Source: Promethearchaeota archaeon (lineage in GTDB: Archaea > Asgardarchaeota > Lokiarchaeia > Sigyniarchaeales > SOKP01). From it: a stretch of 64,000 bases of DNA. Below the pieces are notes generated by a model, which did not search any database, had not been told where the DNA came from, and was given only the letters and a program-made list of their open reading frames with translations. The stretch's first letter is position 1, and every line of letters begins with the position of its first letter. The stretch covers positions 192,001 to 256,000 of the forward strand of contig JBHLOY010000001.1 of NCBI GenBank assembly GCA_048939995.1, written 5' to 3'. The translations under genes and the position numbers were made by a program. Positions 22,111-26,793 of this stretch are shown piece after piece.

Positions 22111-23217
22111 CTATTTCTCTATTATTGTTTCTTTTATTTTCGTACCAAAATGAGTTGCTCCTGGTCCAAGATGGACTAAGATTTCATCTCCTACTTTGAT
22201 ATCCACTACTGATATCGCATCACCATTTGAATCTACTAATCTAATGGTTTCTGCATTTTGGCATACACAACTTATGGAAATTTTTTTGGAATTAATCTTG
22301 GTTTCTAATTCAAATCTCAACATAGGGCGAGTTTCGATTTTAACACGTCCAACAGAAACTATCCTCCCTATTCCATCAGTATTAACAACTAGTACTTTAT
22401 CTCCCCCTTTTATTTCGCTTAAGTATTTAGTTTTAAATATTTTTGTGTCATCTCCGGGTACTAAAATATAGGCAGAAACATCACCTGCATTTACTCGAAA
22501 CGGTCTGGAGCTCACAAATTTCGTATCTATAGTTTCTGAGTGAACTAATACAAACCCTTGTGCAGTACTTCCAATCAGCATACCCTCCCCTCTTTTTAAG
22601 AGAGAAGTAGTATCAACACAAACTCGATCACTTTCCGGAAAGTTTTGAATTTTAAGAACTTTCGCTAATTTTAATTCTATTTTAAAGCTTGTATTTAAGA
22701 ACTTCTTTAATTTAATTAAATCTCTTACTTTTTTGGGAGTAAACATAATCCCGTTGACGCCAGTTTCAAGAGTTTTTAACAACAGTTCTGCGTCCTTAAT
22801 ATCATCAACATGAGCTATTAATTCAACATTACTCGACTGAGAAAAAGAAATCAAATTTTCAAAGGGAATGATTTTCCAATCAGTGGCAAAAACAACAATA
22901 AAATCGAGATTTTCTTCTTTAATTAAGGTTTGAATTTCGATTTCATCTTCTTTTGAATTTAAGATCTTATAAAACCCTCTTTTTTTTAGAGGGTGTTTCT
23001 CGTTATATTTTTGTAAGGCAGTCTTAGAGTCAAATAGAACATATTCTGAGAAGTCCTCAGGGGATTTAGAATATAAGATAACATGCTTAAGATTTTTGAA
23101 AAAATTGATTGTTTCAGCTGATATCAAAAAGTTAAGAAAATTTTGATTGAGAGCTTCTTGAACTAATTCTTTGAGATTATGAGTTTTTTGTACAAATTTT
23201 AGAATTACTTTTTTCAT
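22111..23217 (-). CDS. aroB': 3-dehydroquinate synthase II (archaeal AroB')
   Basis: DWKIIPFENL, DRVCVDT, RPFRVNAG, GRVKIETRP, QNAETIRL. Confidence 0.93.
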   Translation of the reverse strand: MKKVILKFVQKTHNLKELVQEALNQNFLNFLISAETINFFKNLKHVILYSKSPEDFSEYVLFDSKTALQKYNEKHPLKKRGFYKILNSKEDEIEIQTLIKEENLDFIVVFATDWKIIPFENLISFSQSSNVELIAHVDDIKDAELLLKTLETGVNGIMFTPKKVRDLIKLKKFLNTSFKIELKLAKVLKIQNFPESDRVCVDTTSLLKRGEGMLIGSTAQGFVLVHSETIDTKFVSSRPFRVNAGDVSAYILVPGDDTKIFKTKYLSEIKGGDKVLVVNTDGIGRIVSVGRVKIETRPMLRFELETKINSKKISISCVCQNAETIRLVDSNGDAISVVDIKVGDEILVHLGPGATHFGTKIKETIIEK

Positions 23218-23368: not shown

Positions 23369-24019
23369 GTGGGCCTAAAGAAAAAATTATTCCCCCGGAA
23401 AGGTAAAGAAAAAGACGAGTTAGTAATAAAAGCTAAATCACATATTCGCAAAATTGCATTAGCAAATAAAACTTATAATCAGAGATCTGAAATTGCGAGG
23501 AAAAATGCAAAAATTGCATTAAAAAGGGGTGAACGTGATAGGGCAAAAAATTATTTGATACAATACAAACAATATCAGCAAAAAGTTGATCGAGCAAACA
23601 ACATTAGAGCCAAAATAGAGCGTCAAATCGAAGCTATTGAAGAAGGCCAAATGATTTCCATGACTGGAGATTTAATGGGAGGGATTAGAGATGAACTCGA
23701 AACTATCGCTACAAAAGCGTCGCCTACTAAGATTGCAGAAATAGCAGAAGATTCTGAGGCTTATGTTGCAGAGATTGAGGAATCTGCTGATATATTAGCG
23801 GGTGATCCAGAAATCGATTTAGCAATTGATGTTACAGATGAGTTAAATCAACTTGAAACTGAAATGTTATTAGAACAAGGAGGTCAAATGCCTGAAGTCC
23901 CTATAGACGATCTTCAGTATATCTCTGAATTTGATATCGAAGAGGAACCCGAAATTAAGACTAAAGCAAAACTAGAAGATGAAATAGAAAAGTTAAGAAA
24001 AGAACTAGAAGGCGGTTAA
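23369..24019 (+). CDS. ESCRT-III / Snf7-family protein
   Basis: Basic N-terminal helical hairpin ('AKIALKRGERDRAKNYLIQYK..') and acidic C-half ('DVTDELNQLETE...MPEVP'). Confidence 0.82.
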   Translation: MGLKKKLFPRKGKEKDELVIKAKSHIRKIALANKTYNQRSEIARKNAKIALKRGERDRAKNYLIQYKQYQQKVDRANNIRAKIERQIEAIEEGQMISMTGDLMGGIRDELETIATKASPTKIAEIAEDSEAYVAEIEESADILAGDPEIDLAIDVTDELNQLETEMLLEQGGQMPEVPIDDLQYISEFDIEEEPEIKTKAKLEDEIEKLRKELEGG

Positions 24020-24032
24020 ATATTTAATCTTC

Positions 24033-26135
24033 TTAACTAAAGTATCTTCTTTTATCAAATTCCCGATTAGATCTTTTTAGATATTCACTTTCTTTGATTT
24101 CTTCCTCTAAATTCTCTATTTTTCTATCAATTAAATAGATTTCTTTTTGTAGGTTTTTGAATGTCCTGAAATAATCTATTTCAGAAATTATTCCTTTATC
24201 GAATTTTGAATCTAATGTTTTTAGGGTTTCTTCAAGGCTATATTTCTCTTTTTCCAATTCCAACATTTTTTTTCTTTTAGATTTTTCGTATTTAGATATC
24301 TGAGTTCTTGGTTTGTAATCTGTTTGAGACAAAGTATAATTTGAGTTAAATAAATCTGATAAATGATTCCTTGCATACTCTCGATATACCGGCATTGCAT
24401 TTACTTCGTTATTTCTAGAATTTAGTTGCATAAGTAATTCACTATCTATGTCACGATTAGCTTCATTTAGAGGTCGCAATATTGGTTGATTTTGGCGTTG
24501 TAATTGCTCTAATCTTCTCATTAAAAAGTTTTTATCTTCAATATCAGGCAAACTATTATAATAAGGATCTTCATAATTTTTTGGGCGATAATTTTGGATG
24601 CGATTAGGATTGCAAAAGTTTTGAAGAAAGAAGTCATTTTCATTATAATTTGGTGGAAGATATTGTTTTAAGGCATTACTATAATATCTTATATCACCAG
24701 GGGTTTGTATTTGGGAATTAGTTTGATAAAGCGCTGGTTCTTGAAAATTAGTATTATAATAATTATAAAATCCTTGAGGGTAAATCGAAAAATGTGGATT
24801 CCTGTCAAATTGTTGAGGATTTTGGTTTACTCTTGTATTAAATTGGAATTGTTTTTGAGGAAAGTTAAAATTCTGAGCAAAAGGATTGTCTACTTTTTGC
24901 AAGTTATTGAAAATGCCTTTATGCTGTATATTATTATACTTACACTTTAAACTGAAAAAAGAATTAATTGCTTCTTCAATATAATTTATAAGATCTGTAA
25001 AATCTATATCGATTTCATACAGTATTTTTGCCGATTGCTCATCATAGATTACGCATTCATCGAAATTTCTTGCTAGAAGTATATAATCCATAACTTTCGT
25101 AAGAGCGTTAGGAGGAAGTGTGAATTCATATCTACCGTACTCAAATTCTACATACAATTTTTTAAATAGCTTTCCCCGAATTTTTATTCTAGTTAAATCT
25201 TTTACTGGAGCTTTAAAGATAGTTTTTTGCTTTTTTTTTATTTTTCCATAAATTCGTACAAAAGATAGATCAAAATTGGTTATAAACAAAATTCCTTTAT
25301 TTTTCTTAAATTTATCTTGGTTATTTAAACCATTTGTTAATTTAGCAAATATAGAGTATACTGGTTTTTCTTCCTCTGCTAAATTCAAATGTTTTTTGTA
25401 CGAATCAAAAAGACAATTAATCTTATCAATGAAATAGAGATTTTTTTGAATAGGTTCAATACTATTGGTGATAGTGATTAAGTTATTGGTGATAAATTCA
25501 TTAATAGAATGATAATTTGTGTTTAAATTTTCAAAAATTCCTTCAATAATTTTTACATTTGAGTTTGGTTGGTCATAAATATTAAAAAAATATTCTTTAT
25601 TAAGAGAAAAATGATGAAAAAGAATACGAATTTTTTCAAGTAGATTTTCTTTAGCATAGATATATAATTTAAATAAAGATAATAAATCAGATTCCATATT
25701 AGGGTAATGGTAACATCTAATTGGAGGTGCTCTTGCTCTTTCAATCTTTTGCCTTAATAAATATAAATTATTGAGACCATCTCTTAAGGGATCTACGAAA
25801 TTCCGAGCATCCTTGATTAAATCTAAGAATTTCTTTTCCAATTGTTCTTTTTTCTCATAGATGTTAATAATTTGATGAGAGTGACATTTAGGACAGGATT
25901 TTAATTGTTGATTAATTAATTTTATATTCTCTTTCTCACAATTTTTACAGACTTTCTTTTTCCCAGAATCTAAAATTTCAATATTTTTTGAATTACAATC
26001 TTGACAAACATAAAAATCATATTTTTCTTCATGCAAACAATCATTGCAACAACTAATACCACATTCTTCACAATAATAAGCTAGCTTTACATTCCGTTGA
26101 CAGAAACGACATATTTGTATATGTTGGTCTAACAT
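24033..26135 (-). CDS. Multidomain protein: Zn fingers, coiled coil, PH/GRAM-like domain, Q/N-rich linker, steadiness-box-like C-terminus
   Basis: Six N-terminal Cys pairs; 'KGILFITNFDLSF...PVKDL..I'; 'LEETLKTLDSKFDKGIISEIDYFRTFKNLQKEIY'. Confidence 0.65.
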   Translation of the reverse strand: MLDQHIQICRFCQRNVKLAYYCEECGISCCNDCLHEEKYDFYVCQDCNSKNIEILDSGKKKVCKNCEKENIKLINQQLKSCPKCHSHQIINIYEKKEQLEKKFLDLIKDARNFVDPLRDGLNNLYLLRQKIERARAPPIRCYHYPNMESDLLSLFKLYIYAKENLLEKIRILFHHFSLNKEYFFNIYDQPNSNVKIIEGIFENLNTNYHSINEFITNNLITITNSIEPIQKNLYFIDKINCLFDSYKKHLNLAEEEKPVYSIFAKLTNGLNNQDKFKKNKGILFITNFDLSFVRIYGKIKKKQKTIFKAPVKDLTRIKIRGKLFKKLYVEFEYGRYEFTLPPNALTKVMDYILLARNFDECVIYDEQSAKILYEIDIDFTDLINYIEEAINSFFSLKCKYNNIQHKGIFNNLQKVDNPFAQNFNFPQKQFQFNTRVNQNPQQFDRNPHFSIYPQGFYNYYNTNFQEPALYQTNSQIQTPGDIRYYSNALKQYLPPNYNENDFFLQNFCNPNRIQNYRPKNYEDPYYNSLPDIEDKNFLMRRLEQLQRQNQPILRPLNEANRDIDSELLMQLNSRNNEVNAMPVYREYARNHLSDLFNSNYTLSQTDYKPRTQISKYEKSKRKKMLELEKEKYSLEETLKTLDSKFDKGIISEIDYFRTFKNLQKEIYLIDRKIENLEEEIKESEYLKRSNREFDKRRYFS

Positions 26136-26325: not shown

Positions 26326-26589
26326 TCATTTTACAATCTTCACTGTTGTACCAAGAGCTTGGCCTGGAACTCCTGCTTTTTTAAAATGAGCTCTTACAGC
26401 TCCGTTATTTCCATGAGAGCGCGTTATTATTCCTTTTAATTCTTTACCAGTAGGACTTATCCAGACTAATATTCTTCCAACCAACTTATTTGCTTCATTT
26501 TTAGTTTTGATGTGTGGAAAAACTATTATACAGTGCTTAGGATGTATCTTGTGGCGACCCCTCTTATAATTAGAGATTGTTCCTTCCAT
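26326..26589 (-). CDS. rpl35ae: 50S ribosomal protein L35Ae; probable start ATG at 26589
   Basis: 'GTISNYKRGRH...A.KLVGR...GIITRSHGNNGAVRAHF...PGQALG'. Confidence 0.95.
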   Translation of the reverse strand: MEGTISNYKRGRHKIHPKHCIIVFPHIKTKNEANKLVGRILVWISPTGKELKGIITRSHGNNGAVRAHFKKAGVPGQALGTTVKIVK

Positions 26590-26793
26590 ACCTAGTATTT
26601 CTAATTTATTTAACGTCAAGAAAAAAACCAATTATAGCCAAATTAATATTTAGAATTTTTAAAAAAATAAAAAATTTATGTATCTATAGTCTCAATTAGT
26701 TATTTGTAAAAAATGCTCATAATCAAGTTTTAATAGAAATTATTTCTAACTAAAATTATAGTCAATTAAATTGACTGTTGAAAATGTGGTATT

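Follow-up and report, generated by a model that had tools for sequence, protein, structure and literature searches.

We analysed a 64,000-nucleotide stretch of a Promethearchaeota contig (hereafter the window), in which four genes lie in the order DHQS-II (− strand), Snf7 (+), a gene for a 700-aa protein (−) and L35Ae (−). The Snf7 gene spans positions 23369-24019 on the + strand, starts with GTG and encodes a 216-aa protein whose orthologues begin with MGLKKKLFP; the 700-aa gene spans 24033-26135 on the − strand. The two genes converge, with their stop codons 13 nt apart, exactly as a sequence-only reading of this DNA had described them. Given this orientation, the pair is not co-transcribed.

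The 216-aa protein belongs to the Vps20/32/60 (CHMP4-7) class of ESCRT-III, a class that we assigned from its matches in the PDB and in the literature. It scored 40.2 bits against Pfam Snf7 (PF03357, cut-off 27.3) and matched over its full length the PDB entry 9FN1, ‘Vps20/32/60-like protein (ESCRT-III)’, with an E-value of 8.5e-92, the next match being yeast Snf7. 9FN1 is the CHMP4-7 protein of Lokiarchaeum GC14_75 (Lokiarch_16760, KKK44605.1), and the sequence matches the one listed for Lokiarch_16760 in the Supplementary Data of Hatano. This Loki protein self-assembles in vitro into helical filaments and tubes, and there it also deforms membranes and remodels vesicles (Melnikov et al., 2025, EMBO J, PMC11791191). 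The two proteins have equal length, share their gene neighbours and show no difference of note; the 216-aa protein is orthologous to Loki CHMP4-7, the main filament-forming ESCRT-III, and is not an extra paralogue. Its C-terminal helix is conserved as K-[DE]-E-I-[DE]-K-L-[KR]-K-E-L, a pattern that may represent a MIM-like element. A PspA identity was considered and rejected: the NCBIfam PspA model, whose cut-off is 243 bits, gave 14.6, compared with the strong Snf7 and 9FN1 matches of a true ESCRT-III protein. The naming of this protein varies between papers, Lokiarch_16760 being called ‘CHMP4-7’ in one place and ‘ESCRT3A’ in Hatano's sequence file.

The 700-aa protein begins with three Zn-binding modules (aa 1-91; positions 25863-26135, − strand) built from six CxxC pairs between aa 9 and 84; none of the 12 cysteines varies across 52 homologues with identities as low as 19%. 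Congruently with the B-box- or ribbon-like Zn fingers recognized beforehand, the first module is B-box-like and the others are zinc ribbons. They form short beta hairpins in the AF2 model, and Pfam DZR and zf-B_box match the region weakly, rising above the cut-off in some homologues. A RING/E3 reading of the region was discarded, as the RING, B-box, FYVE and double zinc ribbon matches were weak and scattered and no specific class was assignable. Downstream lies a helical stalk (aa 92-245; 25401-25862, − strand) of three long helices (aa 92-134, 147-184 and 191-245) modelled with a pLDDT of 94-98. When we searched with the model of the protein using Foldseek, DH-PH (RhoGEF) chains ranked first, with TM values of 0.2-0.27 and good superposition limited to the PH part. 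The stalk helices did not superpose as a DH domain (rmsd 8-16 Å whenever they were included), and Pfam DH gave no match on the protein.

The block previously described as PH/GRAM-like is a PH-like domain of the GRAM/GLUE/bacterial-PH branch (aa 255-360; 25056-25373, − strand), according to VIA, Foldseek, Pfam and PDB profile comparisons. The AF2 models (pLDDT 91.8 and 91.9) displayed a seven-stranded sandwich followed by a C-terminal helix at aa 258-356, and 50 out of the top 50 fold matches had the PH superfold. VIA Z scores ranged from 10.4 to 13.4, with 13.4 for the MTMR2 GRAM-PH domain, 12.6 for Lam6 and 10.6 for the EAP45 GLUE domain (2dx5), and Foldseek aligned the domain with the Vps36 PH domain 2cay_A at a TMt of 0.58 (E 1.5e-4). 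On fold alone, the GRAM domains of MTMR2 and Lam6 score as high as or higher than the Vps36 GLUE domain. At the sequence level, bPH_3 was matched by 30 of the 52 homologues, GRAM by 18 and Vps36_ESCRT-II (PF11605) also by 18 (best E 3.2e-6), although the 700-aa protein itself has no PF11605 match, and GRAM and bPH_3 score equally well or better; the best PDB profile match was the yeast Vps36 GLUE domain (E 0.057). These matches add sequence-level support to the placement of the domain in this branch. The protein shares a PH-like fold with Vps36/EAP45 (GLUE; 2CAY, 2HTH, 2DX5) and, like yeast Vps36, joins Zn fingers to it, but it is devoid of winged-helix domains and carries its Zn modules at the N-terminus instead of inserted in the PH domain.

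The PH-like domain is followed by a low-complexity linker (aa 413-600; 24336-24899, − strand) that is rich in N, Q, P and Y, as had been noted from its letters. The fraction of these residues is 0.44-0.56 over aa ~413-600, with one PPNY at aa 494. Among homologues the linker ranges from 10 to 392 aa, and a PPxY is present in 9 out of 48.

After a short coiled coil, the protein ends in a steadiness-box (SB) helical hairpin (aa 621-680; 24096-24275, − strand). Pfam Vps23_core matched it weakly at aa 621-668 (E 0.0056). The whole protein reached 17.1 bits and its C-terminal piece 21.9, both below the cut-off of 26.8, and taken as a whole the 700-aa protein is not a Vps23 member at the Pfam level. 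A profile built from the C-termini of 43 homologues gave a clearer picture: it matched the yeast Vps23 headpiece first (2P22_A and 2F66_A, E ~6e-7), followed by TSG101 (6VME_B, 5.6e-5) and VPS37B (0.013). Moreover, Vps23_core was the family most often matched by the individual C-termini (27 of 43, best E 4.3e-7), and SHOCT was outside the 25 most-matched Pfam families, which argues against a C-terminus of the generic SHOCT kind. The homology to the steadiness box, visible solely at the profile level, bears out the resemblance to Vps23/Tsg101-Vps37 proposed earlier, and the present analysis adds that the hairpin is closer to Vps23 than to Vps37 or Vps28. Vps23/TSG101 (2P22, 2F66, 6VME) also shares with the 700-aa protein the coiled coil before the hairpin and a low-complexity, Pro-containing linker upstream of it. 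In contrast, the 700-aa protein carries Zn ribbons, the three-helix stalk and the PH domain instead of a UEV domain. A search with PF05743 found no UEV match in this protein or in the whole genome, where divergent E2/UEV-like proteins may still be encoded.

This architecture is that of the Znr_CC_PH_SB family (asCOG cog.011556; alias Znr_PH_CC_SB), which has been described as combining three Zn ribbons with a coiled coil, a PH domain and an SB and as a “likely ESCRT-I component”, with the analogy to ESCRT-I and Vps36 already drawn (Makarova et al., 2024, mBio, PMC10936438). Both proteins have the three Zn ribbons, a helical region, the PH domain, the linker, the coiled coil and the SB. In Lokiarchaeum GC14_75, Table S2 of the same study gives the order L35Ae (+), Znr_CC_PH_SB (+), MetE (+), Vps20-family ESCRT-III (−; Lokiarch_16760) and DHQS (+). 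The flanks and the taxon are thus those of our locus, with L35Ae on the upstream side and, downstream, a Vps20-family ESCRT-III gene in convergent orientation. The MetE-like gene that separates the two ESCRT genes in GC14_75 is missing here, and the genes are consequently only 13 nt apart; our protein has 700 aa compared with ~650 aa in GC14_75, the excess lying chiefly in the linker. From the spacing of the locus tags, we assigned the GC14_75 member (As_004-p_01543) to Lokiarch_16740, which a 2018 review had entered as the Asgard Vps23 homologue. The 700-aa gene is the orthologue of Lokiarch_16740, as judged by position and taxon. At 90% clustering the family comprised over 261 homologues, always from Asgard/Promethearchaeota MAGs, and it is present in 115 out of 121 genomes of the class. 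The two genes of the locus are very probably Lokiarchaeial orthologues of Asgard ESCRT genes that had been published before, one for a Vps20/32/60-class ESCRT-III and one for Znr_CC_PH_SB. Both genes, their domain architecture and their neighbourhood are already in the literature, and the window contributes one further orthologous locus.

We then compared the arrangement of the two genes across genomes, reading it from the coordinates. Within the genus, the two genes share a contig in 27 other genomes, and in every one of these they sit next to each other in convergent orientation, separated by 27-112 nt. In most other genera of the family a single MetE-like gene is placed between them, and in three genomes of a second family, at 25-28% identity, the pair is adjacent or near-adjacent. 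In one complete genome a distance of 180 kb separates the two genes, and the linkage was absent from the further orders of the class that were sampled. The pairing seen in the window is conserved across an order, in two families, although an unrelated MetE-like gene frequently interrupts it; this count for a CHMP4-7-class gene is an addition of the present analysis. The housekeeping genes L35Ae and DHQS belong to the synteny block as well. As these genes are part of the block and the MetE-like gene often intervenes, part of the linkage may be frozen gene order.

The sequence-only reading had gone further and proposed a second, non-canonical ESCRT module in which one protein combines ESCRT-I- and ESCRT-II-like functions. 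It was correct that the window has no Vps4, Vps22, Vps25 or ubiquitin gene; these map to contigs C13, C28, C6 and C23 of the same genome. Besides the Snf7 gene studied here, the genome has just one more. This second gene is clustered with Vps22, Vps25 and Vps4 on C13 and encodes a paralogue with CHMP2A and CHMP1B as best matches. A Vps28 gene lies on C23 (122179-122736), and ubiquitin genes are present outside the window. Since there are only two Snf7 genes and the remaining parts are encoded elsewhere in the genome, the gene pair forms part of one dispersed ESCRT system. The domain reading behind the proposal, with a Vps23-type SB and a GRAM/GLUE PH domain in a family that had already been published, stands; the separate module is not supported.

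A stronger version of that proposal, in which the pair is self-contained and the 700-aa protein replaces ESCRT-I and ESCRT-II and directly nucleates the neighbouring ESCRT-III on membranes without Vps28, Vps22 or Vps25, is improbable. The presence of a Vps23-type SB, a Vps36-like GLUE/GRAM PH domain and Zn fingers in a single chain speaks for it, as do the retention of the pairing with this ESCRT-III paralogue in two families of the order and the fact that the literature examined does not state an in-cell nucleator of Loki CHMP4-7. However, the genome encodes Vps28, Vps22, Vps25 and Vps4, and the 216-aa protein is the canonical CHMP4-7 orthologue, working with the only other paralogue. Furthermore, the SB hairpin is an ESCRT-I assembly element whose closest relative in the genome is the N-terminal hairpin of Vps28, the second-best match of the SB profile there, and the paired genes are often split by an unrelated gene and never co-directed. 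A complex prediction with the full-length 700-aa and 216-aa proteins scored 0.00 against a mark of 0.32, a value that weighs neither way on binding.

It is less credible still, to the point of being hardly tenable, that the pair reflects inherited gene order only and that the 700-aa protein acts at the membrane as a Zn/PH protein outside the ESCRT pathway, its C-terminus being a generic CdvA/SHOCT-type oligomerisation hairpin: the conserved L35Ae and DHQS genes, the frequent MetE-like gene, the similar C-terminal hairpins in four other ORFs of the genome and the Pfam matches to CdvA (4/43 members) and to the APG6_N coiled coil (23/43) fit it, but the top PDB matches of the profile were specifically the Vps23 and TSG101 headpieces (E 6e-7 to 6e-5), the PH domain matches Vps36 GLUE in sequence, and the two second-family genomes whose flanks were checked keep the pair without adjoining L35Ae and DHQS.

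We infer instead that Znr_CC_PH_SB is an Asgard-specific upstream adaptor of the single dispersed ESCRT system. Its GRAM/GLUE-like PH domain would anchor it to the membrane and its three Zn modules would bind a cargo signal or a partner, ubiquitin being a guess, while the disordered linker would provide reach. The C-terminal SB hairpin would pack with other SB hairpins, that of Vps28 foremost, in an ESCRT-I-like headpiece, which in turn may act through Vps22 and Vps25 on the two ESCRT-III proteins and Vps4. A bolder variant, which we regard as a long shot, is that the Vps20/32/60-class filament of Lokiarchaeia has its missing nucleator in Znr_CC_PH_SB. As a single-chain adaptor, it would read the membrane with its GLUE/GRAM-like PH domain and a signal with its Zn modules, and would recruit the neighbouring ESCRT-III directly, in parallel to the Vps28/Vps22/Vps25 route. 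If so, it would be a functional analogue of ALIX/Bro1 whose parts come from ESCRT-I and ESCRT-II.

Asgard ESCRT proteins lie at the heart of the question of how membrane trafficking originated in eukaryotes. As this adaptor unites ESCRT-I-type and ESCRT-II-type parts in one chain, Znr_CC_PH_SB is a plausible intermediate.

The genes for P0001, a 216-aa Snf7/ESCRT-III protein (23369-24019, +), and P0002, a 700-aa protein (24033-26135, −), converge with 13 nt between their stop codons, which confirms the convergent pair observed in the sequence-only reading. They lie on contig C11 of a 3.75 Mb genome (98% complete, ~29% G+C) and are flanked by DHQS-II (22111-23217, −) and L35Ae (26326-26631, −). 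Because an AT-rich upstream region is present separately for each gene, we consider them separate convergent transcription units.

The domain interpretation of P0002 proposed from the DNA was largely right. Six CxxC pairs at aa 9-84 account for the multiple Zn fingers, and all 12 cysteines of this region are invariant across 52 homologues, down to 19% identity. An AlphaFold2 model of aa 1-420 based on the alignment of these homologues (mean pLDDT 91.8) shows short beta hairpins (aa 1-91), three long helices (aa 92-245), a seven-stranded sandwich with a capping helix (aa 258-356) and more helices (aa 366-412). When the PH domain modelled by itself (pLDDT 91.9) was searched against 48,161 chains by a method independent of Foldseek, the top 50 matches were all PH-superfold domains; the closest was the MTMR2 GRAM-PH (Z 13.4, rmsd 2.5 Å, 107 aligned), and the best matches also included Lam6 (Z 12.6) and EAP45 with its GLUE domain (Z 10.6). 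The Vps36 PH domain 2cay_A was among the Foldseek matches to the P0002 model (TMt 0.58). At the sequence level, the Pfam families bPH_3, Vps36_ESCRT-II and GRAM matched the PH region of 30/52, 18/52 (best 3.2e-6) and 18/52 (best 3.8e-6) homologues, respectively, and the top PDB match of the family profile was the yeast Vps36 GLUE domain, weakly (E 0.057). The predicted PH/GRAM-like block is thus well founded. For the three long helices together with the PH domain (aa 92-360; window 25401-25862 and 25056-25373), Foldseek placed DH-PH RhoGEF tandems on top (E ~2e-6); the superposition was confined to the PH part.

A low-charge linker rich in N, Q, P and Y follows at aa ~413-600, as had been described, and its length among relatives ranges from 10 to 392 aa. 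It includes a PPNY (PPxY) motif at aa 491-494 (window 24654-24665), inside low-complexity sequence; PPxY occurs in 9/48 homologues and P[ST]xP in several, and in such a P/Y-rich tract PPxY may be due to chance. The C-terminal hairpin had been likened to the steadiness box (SB) of Vps23/Tsg101. Vps23_core gave a sub-threshold match on P0002 by itself, and matched 27/43 C-termini of the family. A profile of these 43 C-termini retrieved from the PDB the yeast Vps23 headpiece chains 2P22_A, 2F66_A and 2CAZ_A (E 6e-7 to 4e-6), followed by TSG101 (6VME_B, 5.6e-5), VPS37B (0.013) and Vps28 (~0.3). SHOCT was absent from the 25 Pfam families most matched by the 43 C-termini. With Vps23_core matched by most of them, the refuting outcome named in the sequence-only reading, a C-terminus resembling only generic SHOCT or coiled coil, did not occur.

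P0002 belongs to a published family, and the locus finding is already known. Makarova et al. (2024, mBio, PMC10936438) describe it as asCOG cog.011556, 'Znr_PH_CC_SB', a protein with three Zn ribbons that also carries a PH domain, a coiled coil and an SB. They liken its PH domain and Zn fingers to those of Vps36, call it 'a likely ESCRT-I component' and consider it 'likely to be ancestral in Asgardarchaeota', with no counterpart in eukaryotes. Their Table S2 lists for Lokiarchaeum GC14_75 L35Ae(+), Znr_CC_PH_SB(+), MetE(+), a Vps20-family ESCRT-III(−) and 3-dehydroquinate synthase(+). This order equals that of the window, DHQS-II(−), Snf7(+), P0002(−), L35Ae(−), except that MetE lies inside the GC14_75 block and is missing from ours. 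The spacing of the locus tags makes Lokiarch_16740 the GC14_75 adaptor, a gene that a 2018 review gave as the Asgard Vps23 homologue, with Lokiarch_16760 as the Vps20/32/60-class protein. RING, CC and PH domains also appear in the Asgard ESCRT-I schematic of Hatano et al. (2022), whose two-hybrid results hint at contacts of a Lokiarchaeotal steadiness-box protein, not necessarily of the P0002 family, with Vps28 and Vps22.

P0001 had been taken for a stand-alone ESCRT-III. A PspA identity was discarded, with NCBIfam PspA at just 14.6 bits (cut-off 243), while Pfam Snf7 scored 40.2 bits (cut-off 27.3). Among PDB sequences, P0001 matched over its full length 9FN1_U, 'Vps20/32/60-like protein (ESCRT-III)' (E 8.5e-92), followed by yeast Snf7. 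The 9FN1 entry is a filament of 'CHMP4-7' (KKK44605.1) from Lokiarchaeum GC14_75, solved by cryo-EM. This protein assembles by itself into helical tubes and deforms vesicles, and the second paralogue, 'CHMP1-3', modulates it (Melnikov et al., 2025, PMC11791191). The genome holds only one other Snf7 gene above the cut-off, on contig C13, whose best matches are CHMP2A and CHMP1B. P0001 is therefore no extra or stand-alone paralogue: of the two ESCRT-III proteins usual in Asgard archaea, it is the canonical Vps20/32/60-class member. We prefer this class name because papers disagree on the labels 'IIIA/IIIB'; in the sequence file of Hatano et al., Lokiarch_16760, with which the P0001 N-terminus agrees, is 'ESCRT3A' and Lokiarch_37480 'ESCRT3B'. 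The terminal helix of P0001, K-[DE]-E-I-[DE]-K-L-[KR]-K-E-L (window 23969-24010), is present in 26/26 aligned orthologues, down to 33% identity, and is probably a MIT-interacting motif for Vps4.

Relatives of P0002 and P0001 occur in 115 and 116 of 121 sampled genomes of the class, respectively, with 25/25 genera covered; among 1.84 billion proteins, the number of clusters at 50% identity is only 137. We compared their coordinates across the sampled genomes. Within the genus, the pair is adjacent and convergent in 27/27 other genomes where the two genes share a contig (gaps 27-112 nt). In the Lokiarchaeum-like genus the gap is ~1.1 kb in ~24 genomes and 0.7-1.8 kb in a few, four have the pair adjacent, and in one complete genome 180 kb separate the two genes; a gap of 1.1-1.3 kb is found in most of the family's other genera. 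In the gaps checked, the intervening gene, missing in our genus, is MetE-like (Pfam Meth_synt_2, about 340 aa; loci L057:3079-4119, L047:1625-2650, L052:1460-2479 and L049:4974-6005). In a second family of the order (25-28% identity) the pair is adjacent or near-adjacent in three genomes, two of which were checked and lack L35Ae and DHQS beside it, and 0.9-7.7 kb apart in the rest; in one genome a Ras-family GTPase occupies the gap instead (L046:2659-3417). No linkage was found in sampled genomes of other orders of the class, and the two genes are never co-directed. The association is thus real and old, yet loose, and partly within conserved housekeeping synteny.

A second, non-canonical ESCRT module, as had been proposed, is not supported by the gene content of the genome, which includes Vps28 (C23), a 796-aa ORF with Vps28_C (C28), several ubiquitin-fold genes and, on C13, the second Snf7 gene adjoining Vps4, Vps25-like and EAP30/Vps22-like genes. 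The Vps25-like ORF (298 aa; L008:7482-8378(−), L008 being C13:93500-113499) matches Pfam ESCRT-II at aa 159-254 only, after an N-terminal extension of ~158 aa; SB-like N-terminal subdomains of Asgard Vps25 are mentioned by Makarova et al. (PMC10936438). Directly downstream of the cluster lie a PfkB kinase, a 174-aa Ras-family small GTPase (L008:11742-12266(+)), a 287-aa ORF without annotation and a TIR-domain protein of 497 aa (L008:13202-14695(−)). Searched against this genome, the SB profile ranked P0002 first and the Vps28 N-terminal hairpin second (E 1.4e-7), then four other ORFs of 417-458 aa with terminal SB-like hairpins (E 2e-6 to 3e-4) at C15:25797-26039(−), C36:4226-4432(+), C37:138242-138478(−) and C28:370675-370860(+) (loci L062-L065). 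The C37 and C28 ORFs are mutual paralogues, and all four may be among the various Asgard proteins with an SB to which Makarova et al. refer. P0002 is most economically read as an ESCRT-I-like subunit acting upstream in a single ESCRT pathway; by homology, its SB would pair with that of Vps28 or of another SB protein.
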